Source: a virus | DNA: 64,000 bases | Direction: 5' to 3' (one strand) | IMG/VR virus record: IMGVR_UViG_3300042469_000981 | Notes under the pieces: model-generated | What the model saw: only the letters and a program-made list of their open reading frames with translations | Databases searched by the model: none | What the model was told of the DNA's origin: nothing | Position numbers and translations under genes: made by a program | In this document: positions 1 to 58,166 of the stretch, one piece after another | Numbering within the stretch: the stretch's first letter is position 1 | Layout: each line of letters opens with the position of its first letter

Positions 1-149
1 CTAAAAGCATAATCATCAATTTGAGGGATATCTAATAAAGAAGTTGTTTTACCTATTTTCTTTTCAGTTGGAACATTTTTTCCAAACTTATGAAAGTATT
101 CTCCAATGTAGATATATCCTTGTCCGGGTTGTAATTGAAACTCACTCAT
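1..149 (-). CDS. GIY-YIG/T5orf172-like protein, N-terminal part (runs off window)
   Basis: Manual translation MSEFQLQPGQGYIYIGEYF...KKIGKTT; its ATG overlaps the endolysin stop (TAATG). Confidence 0.5.
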   Translation of the reverse strand, partial: MSEFQLQPGQGYIYIGEYFHKFGKNVPTEKKIGKTTSLLDIPQIDDYAF

Positions 150-979
150 TATTTTAATAAATTATAATACTCGTTAAAATGTTTAATACGATCAGGTAAA
201 CCAATTGTTCCACCATTTACTCTTTTAGTAACAGCAGTTACAGTTCCTTGATCAGCACCTTTATCACAGATACTCCAAAGTCCATTTTTATTAAAGAACC
301 AAGCAGCAGACATTAAAGGATATTTAGTAGCAACTAAATCAGGATTAACTAAAATTTCCTCAGGAACAAATTTATCAAAAGCAGAATAGTTATCTTTACC
401 AGTCAATTGGATATAACCACGACCTCTAAATTTAAATCCTTCTTTTGTAGCTTCAGCTCCATTACCCATTCTACCTCCATAAACACGAGAAGCAATAGCT
501 TCAGGCTTACGAGCGTATTGTTCTGCCAAAGCTAAAGTAGGGAAATATTTTTTAAATATACCCATTAAACCTTTAGAAGAGTAATTCAAGTTTTCTTGAG
601 TAGCTTTCCAACCTCCTGATTCATGACCACACTGGGCTAAGAAATGAGCTAATCTTAAAGGATTAGTAATACCAAATTTAGCAGCAGTATCAGGAATCTG
701 AACTAATACAGAATCTGGAATATGTCCTTTTAATTTATCTAATTTAAAGCCAGAAGCGGGAACTACTACCGCCGGAGCAACAGGTGCCACAGGAGTAGAA
801 CCCATAATTTTATTCCAAGTAGAATCTCCTACTATACCATCTGCTACTAATCCATTAGCAGCTTGATACTTTTTAACAGCTTCTTCAGTCTTAGGACCAA
901 AGTTACCTACAGGATCAACTCCTAATTTAACTTGGAGTTGTTTTACCTGTTCATTATTATCACCTTTTTTTAGTAACAT
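149..979 (-). CDS. Endolysin: N-terminal peptidoglycan-binding domain plus GH19 (chitinase class I/lysozyme-like) domain
   Basis: PG_binding_1-like GxFGPKTEEAVKKYQAANGLVADGIVG; GH19 motifs LAHFLAQCGHESGG, ENLNYS, FRGRGYIQLTGKDNY, VTKRVNGGTIGLPDR. Confidence 0.92.
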   Translation of the reverse strand: MLLKKGDNNEQVKQLQVKLGVDPVGNFGPKTEEAVKKYQAANGLVADGIVGDSTWNKIMGSTPVAPVAPAVVVPASGFKLDKLKGHIPDSVLVQIPDTAAKFGITNPLRLAHFLAQCGHESGGWKATQENLNYSSKGLMGIFKKYFPTLALAEQYARKPEAIASRVYGGRMGNGAEATKEGFKFRGRGYIQLTGKDNYSAFDKFVPEEILVNPDLVATKYPLMSAAWFFNKNGLWSICDKGADQGTVTAVTKRVNGGTIGLPDRIKHFNEYYNLLK

Positions 980-981
980 AG

Positions 982-1395
982 TTATTTATCTTTATGTTTA
1001 TCGATTTTTTCTAAAATTTTATTTAATATAGAATGTTTAATAAAGCCAGCATTTGAAGCATTTTTTAAAGCACTAACTATTTGGAATATTACAAACGGCA
1101 TTATAATAGTTTCTGAGAGCCAAGATGTACCTGGAAATCCAATTTCTACCATTAATATTACTGTTAGTATAACTAACCAAGTAAATGTGGTTTTTAATAC
1201 TTTAACTGCTTTATAAGTTTTAAATCCTTCTTTCTTAGTACCAGCAACTATACCGAAAAACCCATCCATAAAAGCAACAGCCACTATAGCTAAATACTGC
1301 TCACTATTATCTATAGCTAATCCTCCGAAGTAACTACAAACAAAAGCAAAGGTTGTGGTTAATGATAATAATAATACTAGTAATGTAGATTTCAT
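982..1395 (-). CDS. Putative holin (3 TM)
   Basis: Three hydrophobic segments, basic C-terminus, directly upstream of the endolysin. Confidence 0.6.
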   Translation of the reverse strand: MKSTLLVLLLSLTTTFAFVCSYFGGLAIDNSEQYLAIVAVAFMDGFFGIVAGTKKEGFKTYKAVKVLKTTFTWLVILTVILMVEIGFPGTSWLSETIIMPFVIFQIVSALKNASNAGFIKHSILNKILEKIDKHKDK

Positions 1396-1658
1396 TATCC
1401 TTCTATATCTTTATCTTCTTCGTGTTTATCTTTTTTATTCAAAAATTTATCCACAGAGGCAATACCAAATGAACCTAAAATGATTACCATAAATCCATCA
1501 AAAATAAATTCATTAATTACTAAAGCAGTACCCATGTAACCTGTTACTAGGTCTACAATAAGGGCAATACAAAGCATAAAGAAAGCAATAAAGCCTACTA
1601 ATGCTTTTTCATTAATTGAGTTGTTGTCGTCGAACAGTTGTTTAAAGAAATTTTTCAT
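1395..1658 (-). CDS. Small 2-TM membrane protein (possible holin/antiholin)
   Basis: Two TM helices, charged tail, coupled to the holin candidate. Confidence 0.5.
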   Translation of the reverse strand: MKNFFKQLFDDNNSINEKALVGFIAFFMLCIALIVDLVTGYMGTALVINEFIFDGFMVIILGSFGIASVDKFLNKKDKHEEDKDIEG

Positions 1659-1659
1659 A

Positions 1660-2106
1660 TTATAGTTGTTTTGTTGTTTTTGTTAAACTTTCTTGTAACG
1701 CTTTCGAGAACGCCTTTCGGTTTAACGGAACTTCATTATTTTCAACATTTAAAAATGCAGCGAAAATAAATGTTTTTCTAACACCAACTGATTTATGACA
1801 ACCTGTACCTATGCATATTGTAGTTTCAACAATATAATCTTTTTTTAACCATTGTAAACCCATTATGTTTACAATTTGTTGAGGGGAATAAATACTATCT
1901 ATACTTACTTGAACAGACATACCTAATGAATCATCAGGGATATATCCTTTTTCAATTAGTAATTCTTCAATTGTTTCTTTAACTCCAAAAGTAACATCTC
2001 TACCTCCAATAGTTTGGATGTGTTGGACATTAGTTACATTAACATTTACTTTAGTAGTGTCAATAGGTGATAAAAGTAATAATATAGGAGTTAATAAATT
2101 TAACAT
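1660..2106 (-). CDS. Exported protein, possibly CsgG/TolB-N-like fold
   Basis: Hydrophobic N-terminus. The C-terminal helix LNRKAFSKALQESLTKT resembles the end of the neighbouring CsgG-like protein. Confidence 0.4.
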   Translation of the reverse strand: MLNLLTPILLLLSPIDTTKVNVNVTNVQHIQTIGGRDVTFGVKETIEELLIEKGYIPDDSLGMSVQVSIDSIYSPQQIVNIMGLQWLKKDYIVETTICIGTGCHKSVGVRKTFIFAAFLNVENNEVPLNRKAFSKALQESLTKTTKQL

Positions 2107-2118
2107 CTTTTATAAATA

Positions 2119-3102
2119 TTAATAAGATACAGAACCCGCATACCCAGGAGCAATAATATAAAGATTTAATGTTCCTCCTGATGTTAAAGTTCCTGTAGTG
2201 AGAGTACTTACTCCTGGGTAAGTGGCTCTAACATTTGTTTTGGCTGCTACTATTAAATTGTATTGGGCTGTAGTAAAGATTCTAACATCTGGAGCTGTTC
2301 TCCACCTAGAAAAAATACCTGCTTTCCTAGCAGCTATATAGTACTTATCAGCTATTGAAATAGATCCATCATCATTAACATCAAACCTGTGGAAGGATAA
2401 ACCATTTCTTGTTGTTTTTCCTAAAATAATATTTGAAACAGCTTGAATATCTGAAGTAGTGTAGGATTGGACTCTAGTAGGAGCATCTATCTCTATGTAG
2501 TATTCCTTAGAAGGATCATAAGTCTCAGAGATAGAATAGTATCCTGAAGAGTTAGTATAGATTGTTTTATAAAGTGTCCAAGAAGAAGTTGTAACTATGT
2601 AATCAAATTCTAGTACATATGCTAAACTACTACTATTATTTAGGTCATTCCATCTTCCACCACTTACAAATTGAATATAATCTTCATTACCTGAGTTATT
2701 AGGTTCTCCTGAGTTCCAGTTAGTGTAAGAAAAAGTTTCTCCTGTTACCCATTTCCAAGTTCCTTCTGTTACTTCATCTGTAAGTCCTATCCAACCAGAA
2801 GGCCATAGGTTAAATAGAAAACTGTTTTCTCCTGAGCTAGTTACTGTTGCTAGATACCCACCCATTGCTGCGCAGTTAGCTTTAGCAGTAGTCCAGTTAG
2901 CAATACCTGTAGAACGATAATAAGAGTGTCCGTTATAGTTATTCTGAGAAGTAAATCCTGATATAGTAGAGTTAGTTCTTCTATAAAGTTTTACAGCTAC
3001 ATTATTTGCTCCGGATCCATTTGCGTTATAAAGATATCCCGAGTAGGTAAATTGGCCTAATAAATCATTTGTAAATAATAAAAATACAATTAACCACCTC
3101 AT
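2119..3102 (-). CDS. Secreted C-type lectin domain protein with split Ig/SdrD-B-like domain and C-terminal dockerin-like module
   Basis: Signal peptide; CTL motifs WIGLTD, W.W..G, YTNWNSGEPNN, WND; Ca-loop FDVNDDGSISIAD. Confidence 0.8.
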   Translation of the reverse strand: MRWLIVFLLFTNDLLGQFTYSGYLYNANGSGANNVAVKLYRRTNSTISGFTSQNNYNGHSYYRSTGIANWTTAKANCAAMGGYLATVTSSGENSFLFNLWPSGWIGLTDEVTEGTWKWVTGETFSYTNWNSGEPNNSGNEDYIQFVSGGRWNDLNNSSSLAYVLEFDYIVTTSSWTLYKTIYTNSSGYYSISETYDPSKEYYIEIDAPTRVQSYTTSDIQAVSNIILGKTTRNGLSFHRFDVNDDGSISIADKYYIAARKAGIFSRWRTAPDVRIFTTAQYNLIVAAKTNVRATYPGVSTLTTGTLTSGGTLNLYIIAPGYAGSVSY

Positions 3103-4520
3103 ATTTTTAGTTTAGCACCCATTAATATTTGAAAATTAAGAATGTCTTGACCTGCTATGTATGTACCACCACCTGTTAATCCAACTCCAAACGTTTTAGT
3201 TAGTTTATAATTAAGGTTTAAAAAAGGTATGATAATTGGTTTAGCCTCAAAAATAGATTCAGTATAGAACTTAGAATACGGGGAATAAATACCAGCCATA
3301 ATGATTGTAGCATCCACTGCTTTACCAATTTTCCCTTTATACATAAAACCACCTATAACTATAGTTGATATTAACTCTTCACCAAACAATTGTCCATAAG
3401 TACCAGACACACCATATAAAGCAGTAAATGATTTGATTGAGTTAACTCGTATCAATAAGGCATTTGCTGTAGTAGATTTAGGTAATATTCCTAAACCCGC
3501 TGAAGCTACATTAATATGTTTATGACCTGCTTTATTAGTTCCAATCCAAGAACGTATTGCTGATAAATTACCAATTTTAGCATTAACCATATAATCAGCT
3601 GAAAAACCTATTGAGGCTGTTCCATCTCCTTTTACTCTAGTAAAAGACATAGTACCTCTAGCATCTTGAGAACCATCAGCTCTAGTTTGAACCCCAACAA
3701 TATCCCCAGTAACTAAGATCGCTGGTTTTTGAGTTTCAGCTTTTGCTTTACCCGCAGCCTTAGCAGTACCTGCTGATTGGGATTTTTGAGTTTCAGTTTT
3801 AGTATCTTCTACTTGTTGGTCTGTTGGTTTTTCTTCCTTTGGTGTCTCTCCATTACTGTTATTCCCACTCCCACTACCAGAAGAATTCCCAGAAGAACCA
3901 TTGCTATTATTGGAACTATTGCCTCCATTGCCTACTGTTCCTCCTCCTGATCCATTAGACCCGCCTTGATTTTCTGGTGGATTTCCTCCTTCTTGGCCTG
4001 TTCCTGTACTTGGATTCGATCCATCACTAGAATTGGAACTACTATTATTAGAATTACTGTTAGAATTGTTATCATCTTTCTTTTTATTTGTTGTTATACT
4101 TCCTGAACCTGTTGATGTTGTTCCTCCTACATTATTTCCTACACCTCCTGATAATCCTCCTGCTACTGATGATAGGTCTATACTTAAAATATTAGTGACA
4201 TTACCTATTATGTTTGAAACTTGGTTGGTTGAAGTTGTGGTTGTTGTAGTAGTAAGAACGCCTTGACAAGGTGAGGTTGATTGATATTTAATATAAATAC
4301 TATTAATCCAAGCATCGAATGTACCGTCACTTAATTCCCCGTATGTAAACGTTTTTACTTGTCCATAGTATGAGATAACTATGGGAGCGCTCATATCGGC
4401 GTTAATGAATTTACTTTGTTTAGTACACGGATCTATATAACTATAAGTAAAGGATTGCCCGCAGAGGGGCAATCCAATAATCATCAATATTATTAATATT
4501 TTAGTTCGTAAAGATACCAT
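3099..4520 (-). CDS. Exported protein with N/S/G-rich linker and beta-strand-rich C-terminal domain (possible outer-membrane barrel)
   Basis: Signal-like N-terminus, low-complexity linker, alternating hydrophobic strands ending LMGAKLKI. Confidence 0.5.
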   Translation of the reverse strand: MVSLRTKILIILMIIGLPLCGQSFTYSYIDPCTKQSKFINADMSAPIVISYYGQVKTFTYGELSDGTFDAWINSIYIKYQSTSPCQGVLTTTTTTTSTNQVSNIIGNVTNILSIDLSSVAGGLSGGVGNNVGGTTSTGSGSITTNKKKDDNNSNSNSNNSSSNSSDGSNPSTGTGQEGGNPPENQGGSNGSGGGTVGNGGNSSNNSNGSSGNSSGSGSGNNSNGETPKEEKPTDQQVEDTKTETQKSQSAGTAKAAGKAKAETQKPAILVTGDIVGVQTRADGSQDARGTMSFTRVKGDGTASIGFSADYMVNAKIGNLSAIRSWIGTNKAGHKHINVASAGLGILPKSTTANALLIRVNSIKSFTALYGVSGTYGQLFGEELISTIVIGGFMYKGKIGKAVDATIIMAGIYSPYSKFYTESIFEAKPIIIPFLNLNYKLTKTFGVGLTGGGTYIAGQDILNFQILMGAKLKI

Positions 4521-5187
4521 TCTTGATTAAGTTTTCAATTACTTTAGTGGTAGCAGTCTCTAAAGACTTTCTTGTTGCTTTACCTACAGTACTTTGAGAA
4601 AACTTCATATCAAGATTCTTTAAAAAAGATTCACCTACTTTTTGTGACTCACCTTCACCTGAACCGATATATATTTGACCTGTTTTAGCATCTACAAATC
4701 TTACTTGTAAACGAATAAAGGTAGTTACAACTACAGTTGATTTGCCTTTCATTACAGTTTCATCTTCATCTACAGCAAAATCAGCTACAGTCACATATAC
4801 AAAGTATTGGGCTGCTTTAATCTTACCCTTACCATCAATTGGTTCTTCAAAAACACCTTTTTTAGATGCTTTGAACTGAGTTACCATCCTTTCCTTGATT
4901 TCACTCTTCTCTTCAGTAAACACAAAACGATTTGTTTCATCTAAATAATCTAATACGGATTCAGCGAATCCAAGTCCAACATTTTTTTCTTGTAAATCAG
5001 GATATAAAGCTAAAACTTTAGTCATATCAACATTAATCACTTGCACTGTTTTCTTGATAGAATCAGTATAGTTAGAAACAGTTGAAATGTCCTTAGTTTC
5101 AATAACATCTTTTTCAGTGGTGGTTTTCATAGAACCACAACCTACTAATAAGACAGTTAAAAAAATATTACCAAGGATCTTCTTCAT
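4501..5187 (-). CDS. CsgG-like (curli assembly/transport family) lipoprotein
   Basis: Start re-called at MKKILG (5187); lipobox LVGC; motifs NRFVFTEE, AQYFVYVTV.DF, LQVRFVDAKTGQIYIGSGEG. Confidence 0.7.
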   Translation of the reverse strand: MKKILGNIFLTVLLVGCGSMKTTTEKDVIETKDISTVSNYTDSIKKTVQVINVDMTKVLALYPDLQEKNVGLGFAESVLDYLDETNRFVFTEEKSEIKERMVTQFKASKKGVFEEPIDGKGKIKAAQYFVYVTVADFAVDEDETVMKGKSTVVVTTFIRLQVRFVDAKTGQIYIGSGEGESQKVGESFLKNLDMKFSQSTVGKATRKSLETATTKVIENLIKNGIFTN

Positions 5188-5491
5188 CTTTAGCAGGTTT
5201 AGTGGCAGGAGCAGCAACTGGTTTTTCAACTACACGTTCTTTAATAATTGTGTTAGTTCCACCACCTTGTTTAACTTGTTGCTTGTTTTCTTGGTTTTGC
5301 TGAACATTAATAACAACAGGAGCAGCAGAAGCAGGAGCTGCTTGTTCTGTCTTAGCTTCTTCTTTAGGCTCGTCTCCACCGCCTAAGTGGGTTGCAAACC
5401 AGGCACCGCCGGCTGTAACAGCAGTAGTAACAGCACCAATAATTGCTTTTTTGGTAGCTGACATTACGCTTTCTTCTTTTTCTTCTGACAT
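5168..5491 (-). CDS. Single-TM protein with Q/P/A-rich C-terminal part
   Basis: TM AIIGAVTTAVTAGGAWFA; overlaps the csgG-like gene. Confidence 0.55.
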   Translation of the reverse strand: MSEEKEESVMSATKKAIIGAVTTAVTAGGAWFATHLGGGDEPKEEAKTEQAAPASAAPVVINVQQNQENKQQVKQGGGTNTIIKERVVEKPVAAPATKPAKDEEDPW

Positions 5492-5492
5492 A

Positions 5493-7382
5493 TTATTTAT
5501 TTATAATTATTTTGGAGGTTGAGATTTGTGTATCTGTTTTAACTGATACTAAATAAAATCCGTTAGTTAATGGGGTTAAGTTAACAACATACTTGTATTC
5601 ACCTGAAGGCATTTTGGTATTAACAACTTCCATAACTTGTCTTCCTACCATATCTGTAACAGAAACTTCAGTTTCTGATTCTTGTTCAACACGGAATTGA
5701 ATCATTACCTCACCTTCTGTAGGGTTAGGAAATATAAGAATATCATCAAGTTGAGATAATTTAACAGGTTTATTAATTCTACGGACCTCAATCACTCCCA
5801 TAGCAGGAGTGATATTCATATCACGAGAATCATTACCACCAACAAACTTAGGACCAGTCCATAAAGCAGCAGTTCCCCATTCTGATTGAGGTTTTTTAGC
5901 AATAAATTGTATCACAAATACTTGTTCTCCATCATTAACTAAATTTTTATTAGTCAAATCAGCTGCGCCAAAAGCAACTACTCCATTAGAAGGATTAGTA
6001 TAAGAAGTCCAATTCATCATTTTTTCAGACAAATCTATTTTCTTGAACTCTAATAAAGCAGTATCGTACTTTAACTCTAATTGTAAAGCACCTAATTGTT
6101 TTCCGTTAGTGAGCATTTTAACAGGAACATTAACTAAGTTACCTTCATCAACTTTAACTTTAGGCATATTAACCTCTATAGTTTCTATAACGTCGTCATA
6201 TTGAACGGTGTTGTCAATGATGTAGTTCTTAGCATTAGTTGGGTTAACAATTTTAATAGGCGTTAAACGAGCCATTTTAAATCCTGTATTGTTAGCATCT
6301 CCTTTAACAGCTACATAGTAAGTGATAGAATCACGACCATCAATAGTGTAGTTGAAGTTGTTAATAGTAGAGTAAGTAGAAGTTAAGTTAGTAGCTGATC
6401 CATTAATTGAATTGTACTCGGCAACTGTAAAGAACATTACATCCTTTTTGCCGTTAGGCCAAGCCGAGAATCTACCTGCTAATCTTCCATATACTGAATA
6501 AACATCGGCAATGCTAATTGAACCGTCAGTTCCGTTTACATCCATTGTGTAGTAATCAAATCCTGAAGGAGTGTGTTGAGCTAAGATTGATTGATTAATT
6601 TTCTGTGCATCAGCAGTTGAGATAATACTACCAGGAGTCATTGTATCTCCTTTAACTACCATTCTAACATCCCAATAAGTAGTATCTAAGAATTTTCTAA
6701 ATACTACAACACCACTAGAGTTAGTTGATTTAGCTTCTACTTGAGTCCAAGATCCTGAAGGAGCTTTCTTTTCTAAAGATACCCATAAGTTCTTAGCATC
6801 TGAACCAGTAACGTTTTTAAACTTAGCAGCAAATCGTAACACCTTTTGGTTGAAACGACCACCATAAGAATAAACTACTAATGTAGTATCATTACCCCAA
6901 TTAGTAGCTGCTTTGTTAGCAAATGATTTAACACCAGCAACTTTTAAAGTCTTAATAGAATCCAAAGTGTTCCATGTTGCACTACCAGCATGAGTAAAGG
7001 TAAGATCAAAAGTAGCACCATTTGAATAATTGAATGTAGAACTGGTTCCTGTGTAAACCAAAGTAACAGTCAAAAATCCTTGGGTGTTACTATCTACATA
7101 CTGAAGGTATTGATCAGTAGCAGAGATCTTTAGTGAAGGAACAGCTGCAGTAAAAGCAGTGTTATCATAAAATACCCTGTACTGCATACCTGTAATCTTT
7201 TCAGATGTAGAAGTATTGTAGAAGTGTAAAGGGGCAACAGTCTGTCCAACAGTAGTAGTTGCTACTTGGTAACCAGAATCAATTACCACCCAGTGCCCTG
7301 TTCCAGGTGATGTAGAAGCTGATTGTGCTGATACTCCGAAAACGGCTAAGGCCGTTAATAAGAATAGGATTAGTTTTTTCAT
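5493..7382 (-). CDS. T9SS type A sorting-domain protein with cohesin-like, Ig-like and dockerin-like modules
   Basis: Signal peptide; cohesin-like VNVPVKMLTNGKQLGALQLELKYDTALLEF; dockerin-like ISTADAQ...MDVNGTDGSISIADVY; T9SS CTD IFPNPT...DMVGRQV...LTNGFYLVSV...SKIIINK. Confidence 0.85.
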   Translation of the reverse strand: MKKLILFLLTALAVFGVSAQSASTSPGTGHWVVIDSGYQVATTTVGQTVAPLHFYNTSTSEKITGMQYRVFYDNTAFTAAVPSLKISATDQYLQYVDSNTQGFLTVTLVYTGTSSTFNYSNGATFDLTFTHAGSATWNTLDSIKTLKVAGVKSFANKAATNWGNDTTLVVYSYGGRFNQKVLRFAAKFKNVTGSDAKNLWVSLEKKAPSGSWTQVEAKSTNSSGVVVFRKFLDTTYWDVRMVVKGDTMTPGSIISTADAQKINQSILAQHTPSGFDYYTMDVNGTDGSISIADVYSVYGRLAGRFSAWPNGKKDVMFFTVAEYNSINGSATNLTSTYSTINNFNYTIDGRDSITYYVAVKGDANNTGFKMARLTPIKIVNPTNAKNYIIDNTVQYDDVIETIEVNMPKVKVDEGNLVNVPVKMLTNGKQLGALQLELKYDTALLEFKKIDLSEKMMNWTSYTNPSNGVVAFGAADLTNKNLVNDGEQVFVIQFIAKKPQSEWGTAALWTGPKFVGGNDSRDMNITPAMGVIEVRRINKPVKLSQLDDILIFPNPTEGEVMIQFRVEQESETEVSVTDMVGRQVMEVVNTKMPSGEYKYVVNLTPLTNGFYLVSVKTDTQISTSKIIINK

Positions 7383-7837
7383 TTTTGTATATTAGTTAAT
7401 TGAGTTATTGCATGCTGTTTTAACCAAGGTTCAGGATTAGGTAGCTTGTCAATGAAGTCAAGCTCATATCTGTAACACCACACTTCCTCTTGTTCAGGAA
7501 TTATGATGTACCCTTTTTGTAAAACATGCAAATGTAAACTCTCATGAACCAACACTACTGCTAGGTTATTAATTGAGTTTAGTTTTACATCTTTAACAGC
7601 AACTAATATTATTCCTTTTTCACCATATTTTCCTTCATTTGAAGAAAAACCAGAAGACCAAAATTCTACTTTACCACAAACACTATCTAGTAACTGATAT
7701 TTTTTAATATCTGTTTTTTTAATTAATTGTAATGCTGAATCGATTTTTGAATCCCATCCATCACCAGCTTTATCAATTATAATTTGAGAGAATAAAAGAC
7801 TAGGTAATGTTAACAGAATCAATAGTAATGATTTCAC
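7379..7837 (-). CDS. Exported putative zinc metallopeptidase (HExxH)
   Basis: Signal peptide; LVHESLHL followed by EEVWCY. Confidence 0.55.
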   Translation of the reverse strand: MKSLLLILLTLPSLLFSQIIIDKAGDGWDSKIDSALQLIKKTDIKKYQLLDSVCGKVEFWSSGFSSNEGKYGEKGIILVAVKDVKLNSINNLAVVLVHESLHLHVLQKGYIIIPEQEEVWCYRYELDFIDKLPNPEPWLKQHAITQLTNIQK

Positions 7838-7871
7838 ATTGATAAATATGAAATCTTTTTAAAAATTTTAG

Positions 7872-7945
7872 TGGACCCTGTAGGGCTTGAACCTACGACC
7901 CCCAGATTATGAGTCTGACGCTCTGACCAACTGAGCTAAGGGTCC
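7872..7945 (-). tRNA. tRNA with CAT anticodon, probably Ile2 (lysidine type)
   Basis: Cloverleaf GGACCCT/AGGGTCC, loop CT-CAT-AA, TTCAA T-loop, discriminator A; no encoded CCA. Confidence 0.9.
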
Positions 7946-7950
7946 AATAG

Positions 7951-8022
7951 TACTCGGTAGGGGAATCGAACCCCTCTTTCTAGGATGAAAACCTAGCATC
8001 CTAACCGATAGATGAACCGAGC
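7951..8022 (-). tRNA. tRNA-Glu(TTC)
   Basis: Anticodon arm CTAGG-TTTTCAT-CCTAG; T arm AGGGG-TTCGATT-CCCCT. Confidence 0.92.
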
Positions 8023-8060
8023 AAAAAAAAAGGGTTCAATGACGGGTTTAACTTAATGGA

Positions 8061-8360
8061 TTAAAAATAATCCTTTCCTAGAGACTTTCTTAAAAATTCA
8101 ACCTTACGGTTAGTCTCTTCTAATTCTCTTGATATATTATCATATAATTTATCAACACGAGAATCAATTTTGCCATTAATTTTATCTAACTCACGGTAGA
8201 TATTTCCGTTTTCTTCATCTTTAGAACGATAAATATCTTGTATTTCATGTTCTAAATGACTTAATTCATTGACTTTTTTATTTGACTTTAGTACTACATA
8301 AACTAACACAATAGTGCTAACCAACATAATACCCAAACCAAAAGCTAAAATAATTTCCAT
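8061..8360 (-). CDS. Membrane-anchored coiled-coil hypothetical protein
   Basis: N-terminal TM plus heptad-like region; sits inside the tRNA array. Confidence 0.6.
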   Translation of the reverse strand: MEIILAFGLGIMLVSTIVLVYVVLKSNKKVNELSHLEHEIQDIYRSKDEENGNIYRELDKINGKIDSRVDKLYDNISRELEETNRKVEFLRKSLGKDYF

Positions 8361-8400
8361 ATTTTTTCCTTTCTTTTTTTATGTCAAAGAACCCTTTTTG

Positions 8401-8471
8401 TTACCCCCCAGAGATTCGAACTCCAATTAACTGGACCAAAACCAGTTGTCCTGCCGTTAGACGAGAGGGTA
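8401..8471 (-). tRNA. tRNA-Gln(TTG)
   Basis: Anticodon arm ACTGG-TTTTGGT-CCAGT; GTTCGAATC T-loop. Confidence 0.9.
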
Positions 8472-8582
8472 ATTTTGCTAGGTCACCACCACCACCTAGC
8501 ATGAGGAGATTTAACGTGATTTCTTTCTTGCACGAGAAGAACAGGCCTCCTTTGTTCACGAACCCGAATTGGTATTAAGGTG

Positions 8583-8667
8583 CGGAAGATGTAGGATTCG
8601 AACCTACGGTACCTTGCAGTACAACAGTTTTCAAGACTGCCGCGATCGACCACTCTGCCAATCTTCC
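8583..8667 (-). tRNA. tRNA-Ser(TGA)
   Basis: GGAAGAT acceptor, GCAGT-CTTGAAA-ACTGT, long variable arm. Confidence 0.92.
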
Positions 8668-8874
8668 ATTTTGCAACTTTTAGATTACCCCCAGAGTTGC
8701 TAACTGTGCCAACACACGATTTGGAGAGGTTCATACTTTCGTAGAGGACTTACTCTATCTTCGTTCCCTTGTACTTCGGGCTAATATCTTTGTTCCTTAT
8801 TCTATTACCCTTTTATTTCGGAACTAACCTGCTTATCTTTAAATACGAGTTTTTCAAGGGTACAGGTTATTTTG

Positions 8875-8945
8875 TTGCGGACGACAGACTCGAACTGCCA
8901 ATTTAAGGTTATGAGCCTTATGTGTTACCATTACACTAATCCGCC
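8875..8945 (-). tRNA. tRNA-Met(CAT), initiator-like
   Basis: TAAGG-CTCATAA-CCTTA; G1:A72 mismatch. Confidence 0.85.
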
Positions 8946-8951
8946 ATTTTG

Positions 8952-9024
8952 AGCCACCTGACGGACTCGAACCGCCGACCATCTGATTACAAATCAGAAG
9001 CTCTACCAACTGAGCTAAGGGGGC
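8952..9024 (-). tRNA. tRNA-Thr(TGT)
   Basis: TCTGA-TTTGTAA-TCAGA; canonical D and T arms. Confidence 0.93.
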
Positions 9025-9031
9025 TTGAAGA

Positions 9032-9223
9032 TTATTTCTTCAACTCTTGGATTTCTGTATGAAGTGAATCAGCGTGAGCATTAACACTTTCAATAAGAGA
9101 ATCTGTGTTCATAGAATCTGAACAAGTTGAATCAGCACAAACTGAATCTTTAGATGAAGTTGAGGTTTCATTTGAGCAAGAAGCCAAAGTAACCAATGCG
9201 GCGATAAATAATACTTTTTTCAT
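9032..9223 (-). CDS. Small lipoprotein
   Basis: Start re-called at MKKVLFIAA; lipobox LASC. Confidence 0.6.
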   Translation of the reverse strand: MKKVLFIAALVTLASCSNETSTSSKDSVCADSTCSDSMNTDSLIESVNAHADSLHTEIQELKK

Positions 9224-9253
9224 TTTGATATAAATATATAATTTTTTAATTTG

Positions 9254-9339
9254 TACTACTGGCCGGGATCGAACCGGCACGAACATTACTGTTCACGGGA
9301 TTTTAAGTCCCGCGCGTCTACCTATTCCGCCACAGTAGC
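9254..9339 (-). tRNA. tRNA-Leu(TAA)
   Basis: CGGGA-CTTAAAA-TCCCG, long variable arm, GGTTCGATCC. Confidence 0.93.
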
Positions 9340-11021: not shown

Positions 11022-11747
11022 TTAGAAAGGTAATTCAATATCAATATCCTCAAAAACATACTTATCTAGAATGTATTTAGTATAAATTGTTCCATTACTT
11101 TGTTCTGCTGTTATAGATTTATTCTTTGATCGAATACATTTAACAATTTTAAAGTAATTATCCCAATCTATGCTTTGTATGTCTTGAAAATGTTTATATT
11201 GTTTTCCTACTCTAGTATCTGTTCCATACATCATTTTAGCAGCTAAAATAATACTAGGATGAGTGATTTTAATAGTAGTTCCAAAATAATCTAATTCAAA
11301 CCAATCTTTTGCTTTAAGATAATTTTTATTAAAAAAATCTACTTTATAGTATTTTTCCTTAAAATCTTTAAGAGTATCTCCTAATGATGAATACTCTGAT
11401 AATGAGTATTCTTGGTACTTACAATTATGTTCTAATATAATTAAGTCTTTTTTAAGACTTTCAATAGGAGATTTTAGTTTAATTGTATCACCTTCTTCTT
11501 CATAATCATTGCTACTCCTAGTAATACACAAATCAAAAAAATCAAGTAATGTTAAAAATTCTTTTTCATCAAATGGTTCTGTTAAACTAAAATCTAAATC
11601 TGGATCTCGTTTTTCAAAATCATATTCCATCATTTTAAGGATATACAAAGCCAAACTTCCACCTAACACAAACTTATTATGTATAGTCATTAATGGGATT
11701 ATTTTTTCTTCCCATTTTTCAGGTAATCTATTTAGTAAATGTTCCAT
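11022..11747 (-). CDS. Putative nucleotidyltransferase-fold protein
   Basis: VLGGSLAL...DPDLDF; later helix ILAAK...KHFQD. Confidence 0.55.
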   Translation of the reverse strand: MEHLLNRLPEKWEEKIIPLMTIHNKFVLGGSLALYILKMMEYDFEKRDPDLDFSLTEPFDEKEFLTLLDFFDLCITRSSNDYEEEGDTIKLKSPIESLKKDLIILEHNCKYQEYSLSEYSSLGDTLKDFKEKYYKVDFFNKNYLKAKDWFELDYFGTTIKITHPSIILAAKMMYGTDTRVGKQYKHFQDIQSIDWDNYFKIVKCIRSKNKSITAEQSNGTIYTKYILDKYVFEDIDIELPF

Positions 11748-12928
11748 TATCTTACAATTTTTATTTTAGCACCTGGTAAATCATTATTTATATCATGGCC
11801 TGAACTATGAACCCAAAGCATAGGCTTCATAGGTTGAGTTTTAGGAGAGCAACATTCACCATCAGTTAAATAAATCAAATTAGCATATTCATTTCTATGT
11901 TCTGATAGGTATTGCATCACTGGTTCAAAATCAGTACCACCTCTACCTTGTACTTCAATTTCTTCTCTTTGACCTTTATATTCATAAACTCTTTGAACCT
12001 TAGCATCACATTCAATAATATCAACATAAGTACCTGATTTATATATGTGATAAATTTCATTAAAGAATTCTACTAAATCATCATTACTAACAGAACCTGA
12101 AGTATCAATAGCAACCAATGTTCTTTTCTTTTGTTTTATTTTAAGGGCAGGACCCGTATTGAAACGTCTGTTCGGCTTACGACGAGTCTTTTTAGTATAG
12201 ACCATAGTAGACATACTATTAAAACGTCTAAGGTATGACTTCCAATCAATAACAGGTTCAACAATCTCAAATAAAGAATCAATATAATCTTTCATTTCAG
12301 ATGGAACCAAACCTCTACCAGAACCTTTTTTCTCTAAAGTATCAGTTACATCTTTTAGTTGGTGGTCAATTTGTTTAGCAATAAGTTTCTTTTCAGCCTC
12401 ACTTAAACCTTCAACACCATCTAAATCTAAAACAAACTCACTACCTTCACCAGCCATTTTAGCTACATCACCATCAGGATTGTCTTGAATTTCTTGCATC
12501 AACTTACCATAATAATAATCTGTACCTTTTCTAGGTTCTAAATTAAGTGGTTTAAAAGTAGGACCATCAATTTCTAAACCATCCCAAGCCTCACCTTTCA
12601 TGTCAGAGTTAATATATTGGTTGATTTCTAAATCAGCCGCCATATTATACACTTTCTTATTATCAAAACGATCCCAATTAGTTAAATGAAAGAAACAAAT
12701 ATGAAGTAACTCATGTTTAAGTACTCCCAATTTAGTTTTATCATCTAATGTAGCCCAAAAATCTGGATTAACTTTTAGTTTAGTATTAATCTTGTCTGGT
12801 GTAACACAAGCTGTTTGAATATTTTTATCTAACTCTTTATTTAAAGAGATGAGTACTAAACCATAAAATGGTTCTTTAAGCATTAGATGCTTAGAAAATT
12901 TTGCGATTTCTTCGTATGTATTATTCAT
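11747..12928 (-). CDS. DUF2201-like HExxH metallopeptidase plus vWA domain protein
   Basis: LKHELLH, NMAADLEIN, VAIDTSGSV (MIDAS), GRGGTDF, LIYLTDG. Confidence 0.88.
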   Translation of the reverse strand: MNNTYEEIAKFSKHLMLKEPFYGLVLISLNKELDKNIQTACVTPDKINTKLKVNPDFWATLDDKTKLGVLKHELLHICFFHLTNWDRFDNKKVYNMAADLEINQYINSDMKGEAWDGLEIDGPTFKPLNLEPRKGTDYYYGKLMQEIQDNPDGDVAKMAGEGSEFVLDLDGVEGLSEAEKKLIAKQIDHQLKDVTDTLEKKGSGRGLVPSEMKDYIDSLFEIVEPVIDWKSYLRRFNSMSTMVYTKKTRRKPNRRFNTGPALKIKQKKRTLVAIDTSGSVSNDDLVEFFNEIYHIYKSGTYVDIIECDAKVQRVYEYKGQREEIEVQGRGGTDFEPVMQYLSEHRNEYANLIYLTDGECCSPKTQPMKPMLWVHSSGHDINNDLPGAKIKIVR

Positions 12929-15662: not shown

Positions 15663-16205
15663 TTAGTCTAGTCTACCAAACATAGGTCCCATTTCCCTAA
15701 CCAATTGAATCGCCTCGGATAAATCAATATCAAAAAACTCACGGTCATTACGAATCCTAACATCGTTTAGCTTCAAATGAATAGCCTGTTCAAAATCATA
15801 TGGACGAGAACATTTATAATCAAAAGCCAAATCCCAATCATTAACAACACCAGCACCATTTATTTTTTGCAAACGATATTGTGGTGATGAGGTAGTAAAA
15901 CCAATTTTACAATTTCCAGGATACTGTTTATTAGTCAGGATATACACATATCCGCCAAGTCCATTCTTACGTGACTCGTCAGTGTTATGAGAACCTATAT
16001 AACGGAAATAAAGAATATCCTCCCACCCGTCACCTAAAGGTGAAGGTACTCTTGTATGGTGAGTGACTTTAGTTAAGCGATGACCCCCATCTCCATCCGG
16101 CTTGATATTAACAGGAACAAACTCGGGATTGTCTAAAATCTTTTCGGGTGGGAAAAAGATACTCATTATATAGTGGGATTTATAGTTTGCATGACAGTTG
16201 TCCAA
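15663..16205 (-). CDS. T5orf172/GIY-YIG domain protein
   Basis: GGYVYILTN...CKIGFTT...RL; EQAIH..L; REFF. Confidence 0.8.
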   Translation of the reverse strand: MDNCHANYKSHYIMSIFFPPEKILDNPEFVPVNIKPDGDGGHRLTKVTHHTRVPSPLGDGWEDILYFRYIGSHNTDESRKNGLGGYVYILTNKQYPGNCKIGFTTSSPQYRLQKINGAGVVNDWDLAFDYKCSRPYDFEQAIHLKLNDVRIRNDREFFDIDLSEAIQLVREMGPMFGRLD

Positions 16206-25149: not shown

Positions 25150-25662
25150 TCATTCTTTGTATTTCCAAATAAATTTATGGGCTGATTTTCTTCTCCCTTT
25201 ACATACTTCACATATAGCTGAACTGGGTACTCCTGTTTTAGAATAGGCTTCACCCATTGATTTATATTCTGCTATGAAATTTCCTTGTTTATCAAATTGC
25301 AAAACAGCTGTACTAGTTCCTAGATCCCAAGTTATTTTTTGTCCCTTAAGTTTATTACTAACTGTTGGTTTTTTTATTCCTTTTTGTTTATTTCCTATTA
25401 ATTTCTTAGCTGATTCAGTTTGTTGGTTTGGTCCGCCACCACCCTTATTTTTATTTAATAAAGTTATATTCCAACCATTAAATAATTCAATCCACCATTG
25501 TTCCCAAAACATCCATTCATTTTCTTCTACTTCATCAATTACTTCTAGAGATACATCTTTACTAAAATTTATTCTATGTTCTCTTAATCGTCTAATAGGT
25601 TCATTAGTTTTACCTAAATAAACAGGTATTTCGTTTTCTAATAATATATAAATTGAAATCAT
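25150..25662 (-). mobile_element. Free-standing GIY-YIG homing endonuclease with C-terminal NUMOD1
   Basis: SIYILL...VYLGKT...RL.EH; E..WI; VLQFDKQGNFIAEYKSMGEA...ICEVCKGRRKSAHKFIWKY. Confidence 0.8.
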
Positions 25663-33301: not shown

Positions 33302-33825
33302 TTAACTTTTTTTAGGCCTACCTCGTTTGACAACAGGTGGATTTTTTAATTTACTAACAGCATTAACAATACGTTGACAATCTTCATATTGTTCTTCTCT
33401 AATATAGTAAGGTAAATTTTCTTCTAATGTCTCAATAAAGTGTTTTCGCTCAACAGTAATGTCATAAATTTCTCCCTCCTCTAAACAGTTTATAGATAAA
33501 ACATGAACATGCTTCTTTTTTGAGTCCATATTATTTAATATACCATCTACAATAGCTTTAGCTATTCTAAAATCTTTATTATCAACAAGTTCTTGGAACT
33601 CATCTGAATTGTTAACTGTTATCTCTTTCATCATAATCAAAATAAGTTAAAGAAATCTGTTTTTATATTCTTCTCTTTTAATTTACTAAATTTTTCTTGT
33701 TCCTCCAAGCTTTTAGTAGCTAATTTTTCTAAATGTTTTTGTTTTTGGACATCAAAATCATTAACAAGGGAATCATGTTTTTTATGTTTGCCTTTTTTTA
33801 GTAATGGTACTCGTTTCTTTTTCAT
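33302..33825 (-). CDS. Two hypothetical genes (33302-33640 with UVR-like EEQYEDC and AT-hook-like KRGRPKK; 33637-33825)
   Basis: Motifs as named. Confidence 0.5.
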
Positions 33826-34466
33826 AGGCGGGAGATAAATTCACTACCATCATCTAAAGGTTTAGGGTCATATAGTCCTAATTCTCTAAGGCGTTGTTGA
33901 GTATAATCATCTACTTCCCAATCAACTTTAGATTCATTTTTAACTAAATGATCTTCTAGACCCTCCAGTTGTTTGTCGCTAAATATGTCTCCAATTTGGA
34001 GGAAATAACAGTTATAACAAAGCATTTCTAGGTTATCAAGACGATAATGTTGTTTGTTACCATCTTTAAAATTTAAAATTAAAGGCATTTTATAATCTAG
34101 TAAACGATGCTCATGAAAACCACATGAGTAACATTCTTCCTTCATATAACCCTCTTGTAATAATCTATATTTAATTTTATTAGGGTTGAATGAGGATGGA
34201 TCTAATCTACCTTCAATAATGTCTAATAAAGCAAAATCACGTCTTGGTTTACCATTACTTAAAAATTTAGGAATGCCTTTACCTGATTGGTTTTTATGTT
34301 GTTCAAATAAATTAGCATAACCAGGTTGTGTTGCCTCATATCTCCTAGCCCACATTTTGTAATGTATGTAAGAACAATTCAAATAGCGAGCTGCTGCTTT
34401 ATTTGATTTGGTTTTAGCCATAGCAGCTAAAATCATTTCCTTACCAAGTGGTCTTGCTTTTGGCAT
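33822..34466 (-). CDS. HTH plus degenerate HNH/zinc-finger protein
   Basis: N-terminal HTH-like SNKAAARYL; CYSCG...LNFKDGN..HYRLDNLEMLCYNCY. Confidence 0.65.
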   Translation of the reverse strand: MPKARPLGKEMILAAMAKTKSNKAAARYLNCSYIHYKMWARRYEATQPGYANLFEQHKNQSGKGIPKFLSNGKPRRDFALLDIIEGRLDPSSFNPNKIKYRLLQEGYMKEECYSCGFHEHRLLDYKMPLILNFKDGNKQHYRLDNLEMLCYNCYFLQIGDIFSDKQLEGLEDHLVKNESKVDWEVDDYTQQRLRELGLYDPKPLDDGSEFISRL

Positions 34467-41492: not shown

Positions 41493-42926
41493 TTAATATA
41501 ATAATTTATGATTAATAATTCTATCTTTAGCTTCAGTAGCATTAATAAGTTCAAATCTTTCTCTTGGTTGCCAAGTAGAAAATAACTCATCAAATGCTTC
41601 AATTACTCTTTTACCTTGAGTTTCTCCAGTAAATCCAGCTTCATTTATAGCCCATTCTCTACCTTTTAAACCTTGAACTTTACGTTCTTCAGGAGTTAAT
41701 TTATACACATTCATGATTTGTTCAGCAGCGTCTTCAGGACGGCAAGTGTCATCCCAAATGTAAGGAGTTGGAGGTGAACCTACAAGTGTACGTGATGAAG
41801 GAAATACTGGATAGGCCCATTCTTTATGTTTTTTATAAGTACCTTTATGATTTGAAGGAATTTCTGGTGAAGGTGTAAACCATTCTCCATTTTCATCTTC
41901 AAATCCCATTTGATCTTGCATACCCCCAGTCACGTTTGCAATGATTGGGTTACCTGATAGAATTGCTTCTGTTAAACTTAATCCCCATCCTTCATTAGAT
42001 GTTAATAAAATTTGACAATCTGTACTATTATATAACATATTCATATGGGTTGGATCAAATCTAGCATCAGTAAAAATGACATTATATTGATCTCCATTCA
42101 ATATCAACTCAATAACAGCTTCTAAATCAGTACCATGATCACTTATTCGTTCAGTATGAAGTACCAACACACATTTTTTAGCTTGTTCAATAGGCAACTG
42201 ATCAATAAAATACCTATAAGCTAACATTGTATCTGGAATTTGTTTGCGACGAATGTTTCTTGAATTAAAGAATAAAGCAAAATCATATTCTTTACCTTTA
42301 AATAAATTTTTCTTAAATTCTACTAATTTAGAATCCTTTTTATCTAATGGTTTAAAGACTTCATGATTCAGTCCATGAGGAACATATTTAATAATTTTTT
42401 TATCTGCTTTATCACCTAAAACAAGCTTATTAATATTTACTGTTTGTTTTGAAATACCCATCAGCAAATCACAAGCTTCATAATACGGTAAGTTATATAA
42501 TGGTGCTGGGTAGTCATCCCAAATGTTTAGGTAAGTAATTGGAATTGACTTACGAATTTCATTTTCCATAGCAAACAACCAAACAAAGTAACGAGGATCA
42601 GTAATCAACATAATAGCATCTGGCTGTTCAATTTTAATCAATTGTCTTAAAATGTCTGAATTGCCATATTCATTTACAGGATACATTACTACGGATGAAT
42701 CAGTTAGTCCGGTAATGTCATTTGTTGATTGAGATAGATCTAAACGTTGACCTGCTTCTGGATGTGTAATGGCACCTCCTAAATTAACCCAATTAAAATG
42801 TTGAGCAGTGTGGATTACAATTTCTTTGGCTACTGTTGCTACACCAGAAGTAACTCTAATGTCATCACAGATAAGCATAATTTTCTTCCTCTTATCAGGA
42901 GGTAAGTAAGCAAAACTTGAATTCAT
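41493..42926 (-). CDS. Glycosyltransferase family 4 (GT-B)
   Basis: YVPHG, NSRNIRRKQ, SNEGWGLSLTEA. Confidence 0.88.
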   Translation of the reverse strand: MNSSFAYLPPDKRKKIMLICDDIRVTSGVATVAKEIVIHTAQHFNWVNLGGAITHPEAGQRLDLSQSTNDITGLTDSSVVMYPVNEYGNSDILRQLIKIEQPDAIMLITDPRYFVWLFAMENEIRKSIPITYLNIWDDYPAPLYNLPYYEACDLLMGISKQTVNINKLVLGDKADKKIIKYVPHGLNHEVFKPLDKKDSKLVEFKKNLFKGKEYDFALFFNSRNIRRKQIPDTMLAYRYFIDQLPIEQAKKCVLVLHTERISDHGTDLEAVIELILNGDQYNVIFTDARFDPTHMNMLYNSTDCQILLTSNEGWGLSLTEAILSGNPIIANVTGGMQDQMGFEDENGEWFTPSPEIPSNHKGTYKKHKEWAYPVFPSSRTLVGSPPTPYIWDDTCRPEDAAEQIMNVYKLTPEERKVQGLKGREWAINEAGFTGETQGKRVIEAFDELFSTWQPRERFELINATEAKDRIINHKLLY

Positions 42927-56202: not shown

Positions 56203-56212
56203 AACTTATATT

Positions 56213-56244
56213 GTAATATATTAATCTTCAGGTAAGTGGCCAAG
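56213..56244 (-). promoter_or_regulatory. Promoter upstream of folE
   Basis: CTTG-N20-TATATTAC. Confidence 0.55.
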
Positions 56245-56960: not shown

Positions 56961-56971
56961 TATTATAAATA

Positions 56972-58164: not shown

Positions 58165-58166
58165 TA

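Follow-up and report, generated by a model that had tools for sequence, protein, structure and literature searches.

Background

A type I dockerin is defined by two tandem Ca-binding loop-helix repeats. Phage-encoded cargo of the T9SS, or type IX secretion system, is known from 'Cryophage', for which the passages concerned list an endoglucanase, a GH39 glycoside hydrolase and a PA14 protein, describe this cargo as varying between phage variants, suggest roles in superinfection or competition and term its presence in a phage a 'unique occurrence' (Bellas et al. 2020, PMC7468147). Neither 'cohesin' nor 'lectin' occurs as a word in the main text of that paper. For the csgG/csgF 'curli-like' operon of pelagimyophages, aggregation of neighboring hosts ('sibling capture') is proposed in the relevant part of PMC7029224. 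Here, these systems are compared with a block of seven genes, whose products carry features consistent with export or membrane insertion, in a stretch of 64,000 nt from a virus (IMG/VR record IMGVR_UViG_3300042469_000981), referred to as the window throughout. In a literature search that lay largely outside the subscription journals, no paper treating the block as a system was found, and PMC7077304 contains none of the words lectin, cohesin, secretion, lipoprotein and immuto, the last being part of the name of the nearest cultured relative, Flavobacterium phage vB_FspM_immuto (Immuto).

The block encodes a scaffold protein of 629 amino acids (aa) with a cohesin and a T9SS sorting domain, a 327-aa adaptor protein with a C-type lectin, a 473-aa protein modeled as an outer-membrane barrel, a 228-aa lipoprotein, a 107-aa membrane protein, a 148-aa exported protein and a 152-aa protein with an HExxH motif. 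We tentatively propose that it is a lysis-linked envelope cassette which may provide the infected Flavobacterium-type cell with a display of glycan-binding heads. A preliminary description of the window had delimited a seven-gene block, and this block was recovered with all open reading frames (ORFs) on the minus strand and at the same coordinates. Four features had been missed by that description, namely the barrel as a likely channel or anchor, the link to lysis genes, the exchange of heads and the published precedent for T9SS cargo.

Conservation and lysis linkage of the block

Relatives of the block were collected from IMG/VR in two scans. From 98 candidate stretches, a search with the window scaffold gave 88 relatives, of which 80 were kept (set 1); from 183, a search with the lipoprotein homolog of phage Immuto gave 117, of which again 80 were kept (set 2). 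ORFs were labeled according to their best local BLASTP match at E ≤ 1e-4. Conservation of the block, on which the preliminary description had made its reading depend, was borne out by a syntenic core of five genes (scaffold, 107-aa protein, lipoprotein, barrel protein and 148-aa protein), which is complete in 130 of the 158 viral loci with at least one core gene. The order of the core genes is kept across two deep clades with about 27-53% identity between them.

Linkage to lysis genes was counted in those loci that extend at least 3 kb beyond the core on both sides, by which 25 of 61 loci were dropped from set 1 and 16 of 69 from set 2. Within set 1, an endolysin and a holin-like ORF are located inside the core or no more than 3 kb away in 36 of 36 loci. 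Within set 2, some lysis gene is found at this distance in 38 of 53 loci and an endolysin in 32 of 53. Taken over both sets, lysis genes are encoded in or beside the block in 74 of 89 loci, and the gene in the lectin slot is present in 89 of 89. The endolysin gene lies either downstream, as in the window, or directly upstream of the HExxH gene with tail-fiber genes beyond it (L010, L016), and in phage Immuto it is about 6 kb from the block. In some relatives, a holin-like ORF of 115-122 aa with two transmembrane (TM) segments is found between the scaffold and 107-aa genes or between the 107-aa and lipoprotein genes. The small 'holin-like' labels derive from weak BLAST matches and topology, and some of them may therefore be wrong; the 87-aa protein of the window and the 115-aa ORF of the relatives, both with two TM segments, are so named from topology only, and BLASTP detected no significant similarity between them (E 0.55).

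A scan of prokaryotes (one genome for each of 185,579 species) yielded five contigs, all from metagenome-assembled genomes (MAGs), of which one is labeled Bacteroidetes, one Sediminibacterium, two Flavobacterium and one Sphingomonadaceae. All five contain the scaffold, 107-aa and lipoprotein genes; on L166, a fragment of 2.6 kb, there are no others, and the remaining four also have an endolysin or holin-like ORF. Because just five MAG contigs were found among the genomes of 185,579 species, the cassette is a phage trait and not a host operon. It also occurs on very long contigs (L116, L122 and L147 with 270-309 kb, and L163, a MAG contig of 254 kb); these belong either to jumbo phages or to hosts, in which case the cassette would be in a prophage.

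Additional genes are found within the cassette of individual relatives. GIY-YIG-like endonucleases are encoded at L052 11297-11938 and L053 10265-10867, and a pair of DUF2589 proteins (196 and 156 aa) lies between the scaffold and 107-aa genes at L008 10475-11562 as well as in L009, L040, L051, L053, L054, L056 and L076. Genes whose products start with MADLKISQLP, an N-terminus of tail-fiber-like appearance, are located between the lectin and 148-aa genes (L079 12629-14367, L011 6026-7082); the 426-aa form of this protein matches only an unannotated PHROG, a weak head-decoration PHROG and, weakly, a phage cement protein. In L043 (10261-11424), the holin-like ORF is followed by a gene for a 387-aa repetitive protein rich in Ala, Glu and Gly, for which no family was found.

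Scaffold protein

The scaffold protein is composed of a signal peptide, an N-terminal domain (residues ~22-178), a transthyretin-like beta-sandwich (~179-248; weak match, E 0.03), a module with a dockerin-like loop (residues 281-293, nt 6504-6542), a cohesin (residues 402-524, nt 5811-6179) and a C-terminal T9SS sorting domain (CTD; residues 550-628 of 629, nt 5499-5735). The cohesin, which had been predicted from the sequence alone, scores 45 bits with PF00963 at a cut-off of 24.1, spans profile positions 1-130 of 139 and retains 45.3 bits when the domain is excised. A profile of 28 relatives retrieved cellulosomal cohesins from the PDB over positions 5-140 (2vn5_A, E 1.5e-6; 1g1k_A, 2.6e-6; 6kg8_A, 6e-6). 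The assignment of the CTD to type A proved equally correct (PF18962, 50.2 bits against 27; TIGR04183, 48.2 bits against 23), and a CTD chain in the PDB is matched at E 0.005 (8glk_D). With a sorting domain of this type, handing of the protein to the type IX system of the host is expected, and the predicted 629-aa protein should end on or off the cell surface. A second cohesin-like domain at the N-terminus was not confirmed: residues 1-193 alone have no Pfam match, PDB matches of the N-terminal domain are non-significant (5lxv_A, E 0.35; 4dh2_A, E 1), and hhalign assigns it a probability of 0.6% against the C-terminal cohesin.

The Immutovirus-type clade differs in that the scaffold gene is split. 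A 363-aa protein with signal peptide and without CTD, which holds a degenerate loop module, is encoded beside a 243-aa protein comprising signal peptide, cohesin and CTD. The corresponding loci (L082-L109 type, e.g. L082 4868-6692) stem from 24-26 independent contigs, so that the split looks real and not like a sequencing error. A stand-alone protein of cohesin and CTD next to a partner lacking the CTD only makes sense if the parts meet non-covalently.

Lectin adaptor and the module shared with the scaffold

The adaptor protein consists of a signal peptide, a split beta-sandwich frame into which a C-type lectin is inserted (residues 69-163, nt 2614-2898), a dockerin-like loop (residues 241-252, nt 2347-2382) and a C-terminal beta domain. 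As noted in the preliminary description, it has no CTD, and its C-type lectin is well above the Lectin_C threshold (PF00059, 58.7 bits against 22.6). EPN and WND motifs, presumably the Ca and sugar ligands, are visible in the lectin.

Adaptor and scaffold are paralogous over ~160 aa with an identity of ~32%. In the module common to both, the last part of a beta-sandwich is followed by a helix, a single loop of EF-hand type (DVNDDGSISIAD in the adaptor), a second helix and a small beta domain. Its conservation is highest at the loop and the following helix, with a modest difference to the flanks (0.63 vs 0.54 and 0.59). The helix ahead of the adaptor loop is not accompanied by a loop of the DxNxDG pattern. 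Against the PDB, the module profile obtained only non-significant matches (E 0.4-4.5), four of eight being dockerins and one of eight an EF-hand protein; the alignment with the XynY dockerin spans helix 1, linker, loop 2 and helix 2. On paper, the common segment would thus be half a dockerin; by the tests run, it is not a member of PF00404.

No gene of the block varies more than that of the adaptor (26-89% identity), and the variation includes the head domain. Among 24 diverse proteins encoded in the lectin slot, Lectin_C was found in 16 (four also with a ConA-like Laminin_G_3 and one also with an Ig_7 domain), PA14 in two and GEVED in four, while two had no match; six further slot proteins show the same range of heads. 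The adaptor is itself a cassette, in which a constant frame with the loop is combined with an exchanged head (C-type lectin, PA14, GEVED or ConA-like).

Outer-membrane barrel protein

The 473-aa protein is organized into a signal peptide, a conserved N-terminal domain (residues 22-85), built as a small alpha/beta unit in which two Cys residues are nearly invariant, a long helix (86-113), a tether (116-261) and a C-terminal barrel (267-472, nt 3105-3722). The tether is disordered over ~150 aa and rich in Ser, Asn, Gly and Thr. An AlphaFold2 (AF2) model based on an alignment of 59 sequences has a predicted local distance difference test score (pLDDT) of 68.7 overall and 80-94 in both domains, with 12 strands in the C-terminal domain (pLDDT 80-92). 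Foldseek against the PDB yielded 100 matches at E ≤ 0.001, and all of the 39 entries listed are outer-membrane or membrane-spanning beta-barrels, including porins, the beta-domains of autotransporters and of intimin/invasin, FapF and one polysaccharide secretin; KdgM is matched with a TMt of 0.74 and a root-mean-square deviation (rmsd) of 3.8 Å. In VIA, the translocators of autotransporters rank first (EspP, Z 23.8, rmsd 2.9 Å, 240 aligned; AaaA, 22.4; EstA, 21.4; NalP, 21.1), followed by KdgM (Z 20.0, rmsd 1.6 Å, 165 aligned) and FapF (Z 19.7). The alignments with autotransporters begin at model residues 73-85 and therefore include the long helix. A pore helix directly ahead of strand 1 is not present in the model, in which helix 86-113 is separated from the barrel by ~150 disordered residues.

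The window protein matches no Pfam family at E ≤ 0.1, Autotransporter included; of the full-length members of the family, 35 of 37 have no Pfam match and the matches of the other two look spurious. The full-length profile found PDB sequences only via the low-complexity linker, and an Atlas search with the barrel domain gave low-overlap leads to the Tsx and KdgM porins, which are superseded by the model. With 70 clusters among 1.84 billion representatives, the family is small, and the domain reaches the C-terminus of the protein in the full-length rows inspected. A 12-stranded outer-membrane barrel of autotransporter, FapF or KdgM size is well supported by the model, and on the same basis the 473-aa protein, rather than the lipoprotein, is likely to be the channel or anchor of the block.

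Lipoprotein and small envelope proteins

The lipoprotein is encoded by the most conserved gene of the block (82-99% identity in an alignment of 13 sequences, and 80-98% in the comparison that gave 26-89% for the adaptor). A database search found 800 related proteins at E ≤ 0.001, and among the matches listed, all are more than 92% identical. The designation as a CsgG-like lipoprotein was upheld in part: the lipobox LVGC is present in the 228-aa form, but the CsgG family (PF03783) reaches only 13.8-14 bits against a cut-off of 20.8. Sub-threshold CsgG matches at E ≤ 0.1 were obtained for five of 22 lipoprotein relatives (best E 0.01). A profile search of PDB sequences returned chance-level rows only and no CsgG, and among the language-model feature neighbors in the Atlas, CsgG/LpoB clusters are found at 0.95. 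The protein possibly has a CsgG/LptE-type alpha/beta fold. In at least four of 22 relatives, the Cys is missing from the signal cleavage region and a plain signal peptide is found instead.

According to the alignment, ~12 residues separate two conserved core strands of the lipoprotein, and on this reading there would be no room for CsgG-type membrane hairpins. The transfer of the outer-membrane channel function of CsgG to this protein is not supported, given the short inter-strand stretch, a poor structural model (see below) and the missed family threshold. A CsgG channel exporting the lectin was also considered and rejected, as the lipoprotein has no sign of a hairpin and the barrel protein is the better channel candidate.

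The 148-aa protein had been regarded as a second CsgG-like protein, which was not borne out, since none of 23 relatives matches CsgG (PF03783) at E ≤ 0.1. An alignment with the lipoprotein by hhalign is weak (probability 43%, E 2.5e-4), and the 148-aa protein is possibly a distant paralog of the latter. In the 107-aa protein, an acidic N-terminus precedes a single hydrophobic segment (residues 16-36), and the tail is rich in Pro, Ala, Gln and Asn; in the 26 relatives aligned, the C-terminal Trp (W107) is invariant and the acidic ending, EEDPW in the window, is conserved.

The HExxH motif reported for the 152-aa protein is present as HESLH at residues 98-102; its H98, E99 and H102, like E117 and E118 further on, do not vary in any of the 19 relatives aligned. 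No family was found in Pfam, NCBIfam or PHROG, and no peptidase is among the PDB sequence matches; the profiles of this protein and of the 148-aa protein gave chance-level rows only against PDB sequences. On the basis of the conserved motif, the 152-aa protein is a candidate small zinc metallopeptidase. The position of its gene within the block varies among relatives.

Gene organization of the block

The features of the block and its surroundings are listed in Table 1. Gaps and overlaps between the block genes do not exceed ~12 nt, except at 5168-5229, where the lipoprotein gene starts within the 107-aa gene. A signal peptide, lipobox or TM segment had been reported for each of the seven proteins, which is consistent with our reading of hydropathy and motifs: five proteins have an N-terminal hydrophobic stretch, the lipoprotein has LVGC at residues 14-17 of the 228-aa form, and the 107-aa protein has the segment given above. 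A PHROG search with the seven proteins at E ≤ 0.01 retrieved zero families with structural annotation, the sole match being that of the lipoprotein to an unannotated family, which is weak.

Table 1 Genes and other features of the window, with coordinates in nt
Feature	Position	Strand	Basis or remarks
152-aa exported HExxH protein, candidate small zinc metallopeptidase	7379..7837	(-)	ORF, N-terminal hydrophobic stretch, conserved motif
629-aa scaffold (cohesin and T9SS type A CTD)	5493..7382	(-)	Pfam, NCBIfam, profile searches
107-aa bitopic membrane protein	5168..5491	(-)	ORF, hydropathy, alignment of 26 relatives
228-aa lipoprotein, lipobox LVGC	4501..5187	(-)	ORF from MKK start; longer 242-aa form starts at 5229
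473-aa outer-membrane barrel protein (modeled)	3099..4520	(-)	AF2 model, Foldseek, VIA
327-aa putative glycan-binding adaptor, C-type lectin	2119..3102	(-)	Pfam, module common with scaffold
148-aa exported protein, no assigned family	1660..2106	(-)	ORF; clear signal peptide in distant relatives
87-aa two-TM protein	1395-1658	(-)	topology
Holin	982-1395	(-)	Phage_holin_4_1; PHROG holin
Endolysin	149-979	(-)	PG_binding_1 and Glyco_hydro_19; PHROG endolysin
Seven tRNA genes (Met x2, Glu, Gln, Ser, Thr, Leu)	7871-9339		directly upstream of the block
99-aa coiled-coil-like ORF	8061-8360		among the tRNA genes
HNH/homing-endonuclease-like genes	11747-12928, 15663-16205, 25150-25662, 33822-34466, 54865-55482		across the replication region
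477-aa protein	41493-42926		glycosyltransferase-type PHROG match, E 3e-17
GroEL-type chaperonin	46599-48212		phrog_5725, E 5e-160
7-deazaguanine genes (GTP cyclohydrolase, QueE-like, QueC-like)	55528-60155		

Proposed function and alternative explanations

Taken together, the domains of the block proteins may belong to a phage cassette that re-equips the envelope of the infected Bacteroidota cell with a sugar-binding display. The dockerin-like module would plug into the cohesin, by which lectin heads would be hung on the T9SS-exported scaffold. The barrel could act as an anchor or as the outer-membrane route for partners without CTD, and the 107-aa inner-membrane protein with its invariant C-terminal Trp, the lipoprotein and its putative small paralog may tie the assembly across the periplasm. 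The location of the block alongside holin and endolysin suggests action late in infection. What the display would most likely serve is the binding of host-type surface glycans around lysis. Either receptors on debris and on the dying cell could be masked, so that progeny are spared and rivals excluded, or neighboring hosts could be glued to the burst site.

Several results weigh against this proposal. Its purpose is purely inferred. Both loops that had been quoted as dockerin-like (MDVNGTDGSISIAD, FDVNDDGSISIAD) are present in the translations, but Dockerin_1 (PF00404) stays below its cut-off of 22.9 bits with 15.8 bits for the adaptor and returns nothing for the scaffold; sub-threshold matches also occur in three relatives (L009, L050 and L024), the best with 17.0 bits. 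The duplicated pair of loops of a dockerin is not found, the adaptor having one 12-residue DxNxDGxxxxxD loop, and the loop extends to 13 residues in the window scaffold and is degenerate in the clade with the split gene. In L003, a scaffold 94% identical to that of the window is paired with a GEVED-type adaptor whose module is only 32% identical, and there is thus no sign of a tight co-evolution of the cohesin with its partner. The route by which the CTD-less adaptor crosses the outer membrane is unaccounted for. The AF2 model of the lipoprotein from the alignment of 13 sequences is poor (pLDDT 47) and was not used as evidence for its fold; Foldseek found nothing at E ≤ 0.001 with it, the top rows being CsgG (4q79_B, E 8.7e-3, TM 0.2) and LptE. 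Four metatranscriptome runs contain contigs of 150-470 nt with 90-100% identity on all block genes, for which DNA carry-over is possible; neither expression nor timing is claimed from these contigs, a ranking of the genes by them is impossible, and gaps in their coverage carry no information.

An extended version of the proposal is doubtful. It holds that large phages of freshwater Bacteroidota possess a surface-assembly system of their own, in which a T9SS-exported cohesin scaffold, a type V-like barrel, a periplasm-spanning tether and lectin heads attached via a minimal one-loop dockerin would, at lysis, either supply the step of outer-membrane opening that is missing in Bacteroidota phages or protect progeny by masking glycan receptors of the host. 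Such a system would be a new class of late functions and the first viral cohesin-dockerin system.

It is somewhat unlikely that the core of the block, i.e. the 107-aa protein, lipoprotein, barrel protein and 148-aa protein, is instead a spanin substitute, by which the outer membrane of Bacteroidota would be opened or detached once the endolysin has acted, with the surface proteins as accessories. In this case, the 107-aa protein and the lipoprotein would bridge the periplasm like an i-spanin/o-spanin pair. Their genes adjoin and overlap, the lipoprotein gene is the most conserved one of the block, and the combination of membrane anchor and lipobox is the topology of two-component spanins; however, o-spanins are far smaller than the 228-aa lipoprotein, which is globular and lacks the lipobox Cys in at least four of 22 relatives. 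Lysis genes inside the block or within 3 kb in 36 of 36 loci (set 1) and 38 of 53 loci (set 2), in several gene orders, agree with a function in lysis, and no other spanin candidate was seen between endolysin and block in the window, but in the other 15 of 53 set-2 loci no lysis gene lies within 3 kb and the endolysin of Immuto is more distant. The periplasmic part of the 107-aa protein, as read from the alignment, is of low complexity and rich in Pro and Ala, with no obvious coiled coil. Exchangeable lectin heads and a T9SS cohesin accompany the core in 89 of 89 loci, although it is not obvious what either would contribute to membrane fusion.

It is unlikely that the proteins form no joint complex and are separate envelope 'morons' (a T9SS adhesin, a lectin, an outer-membrane protein and lipoproteins), each of which would change the host surface on its own, for instance to exclude superinfection or alter adhesion, as was proposed for the variable T9SS cargo of 'Cryophage'. 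Within the block, the lectin and HExxH genes do shift position, and homing endonucleases, DUF2589 pairs and tail-fiber-like genes are inserted among its genes in some relatives, but the order of the five-gene core is fixed across the two deep clades and none of its genes is missing in 130 of 158 loci. Outer-membrane barrels encoded by phages are frequent in BFVD, and phage T9SS cargo including a PA14 protein is described as individually variable genes in the 'Cryophage' passages (PMC7468147); in the block, by contrast, scaffold and adaptor have a specific module in common, and the split scaffold implies a meeting of separate chains.

Most improbable is that the block proteins are parts of the virion, acting in decoration or in host recognition with the lectin heads: tail-fiber genes are located just upstream of the block in one clade, tail-fiber-like genes are inserted in the block of L079 and L011, and the swapping of heads resembles the evolution of receptor-binding proteins, but virions assemble in the cytoplasm, no block protein has a structural PHROG at E ≤ 0.01, and a virion role was rejected because of the export signals, all seven proteins having a Sec-type signal, lipobox or membrane anchor and two of them a T9SS domain and a barrel, respectively.

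Genome setting

Nearly all ORFs called in the window are encoded on the minus strand. The gene content is that of a large phage, with a family-B DNA polymerase, a clamp loader, a GroEL-type chaperonin, a thymidylate synthase, QueC, QueE and GTP cyclohydrolase, and several homing endonucleases. The DNA polymerase is T4-type and has its best matches in cyanophage-type myoviruses. The phage origin assumed in the preliminary description is supported by DNA polymerase, clamp loader, GroEL, the queuosine genes, seven tRNAs, holin and endolysin. A comparison with the phage collection at the DNA level gave zero close records, and the nearest virus record (G001) is a 21-kb fragment on which the block region is not present. 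When the collection was searched with the scaffold protein, the sole matches belonged to phage Immuto (three isolates in four records, 29% identity), the host of which is Flavobacterium sp. LMO8. In its GenBank annotation, gp013 is labeled as lectin protein and gp015 as cohesin protein. More than ten studies of lake water, dated 2016-2024, have yielded metagenomes with DNA near-identical to the block. The source of the window is a large lake-water phage infecting Flavobacterium-type Bacteroidota.

The depth of contigs from RNA libraries over the tRNA stretch is far above that of its flanks, for which tRNAs of other organisms may be the source. The 477-aa glycosyltransferase-type protein is a possible second route to the modification of the host surface or of DNA. 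With regard to the 7-deazaguanine genes of the window, vB_FspM_immuto is named in a paper on phage 7-deazaguanine derivatives (PMC10516641).

Comparison with known systems

The cassette is abundant and widespread: large phages of at least two deep clades carry it, and one of these clades includes a cultured phage (Immuto). It touches the questions of how Bacteroidota phages breach the outer membrane and why phages hijack type IX secretion, both of which become directly testable with a conserved, lysis-linked block that contains a cohesin/loop-module pair and exchangeable heads. If the one-loop module binds the cohesin, the two would also offer Bacteroidota surface display a plug-and-socket pair that is natural and compact. 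As a whole, the block varies themes already known from cohesin/dockerin-like pairs outside cellulosomes, from phage T9SS cargo and from envelope operons of phages.

In common with cohesin-dockerin assemblies, both cellulosomal and non-cellulosomal, the block has a true cohesin on a surface-targeted scaffold and a partner in which a functional head is joined to an EF-hand-type loop-helix; the loop-helix segment of adaptor and scaffold aligns to the second half of the XynY dockerin, albeit in a non-significant profile match. It differs from these systems in being encoded by a phage, in the anchor, which is a T9SS CTD and not SLH or sortase, and in having lectins rather than enzymes as heads. Unlike cellulosomal dockerins, the module has one canonical loop and scores below the PF00404 cut-off, and the scaffold itself bears a loop module.

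'Cryophage' resembles the phage described here in its Bacteroidota-type host, type A sorting domains, a PA14 protein and variable cargo; its cargo is, however, encoded by individual variable genes, and the passages concerned report no barrel, lipoprotein partner or lysis linkage (PMC7468147). The pelagimyophage operon, as presented in part of PMC7029224, is likewise a conserved phage operon of exported envelope proteins with a CsgG-type lipoprotein, the purpose of which is not established. It has recognizable CsgG and CsgF and belongs to Proteobacteria-type phages, whereas the lipoprotein of the block is below the CsgG threshold, no CsgF is seen and it is accompanied by a protein with cohesin and T9SS domain, a lectin adaptor and a 12-stranded barrel.

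Two-component spanins (Rz/Rz1 type; PMC6139136) are also pairs of an inner-membrane-anchored protein and an outer-membrane lipoprotein whose adjacent, overlapping genes lie by holin and endolysin. In contrast to them, the lipoprotein of the block is large, globular and sometimes unlipidated, the periplasmic part of the membrane protein is of low complexity, and the pair of 107-aa protein and lipoprotein is never found without the scaffold and mostly occurs with the barrel.

As in type V autotransporters and FapF, the 12-stranded barrel predicted for the 473-aa protein is C-terminal and follows an N-terminal domain and a flexible linker. Different from type V autotransporters, there is no match to the Autotransporter family in Pfam, and ~150 disordered residues lie between the helix and strand 1. 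KdgM-type porins fit the barrel alone nearly as well as the autotransporters do (Z 20.0, rmsd 1.6 Å).

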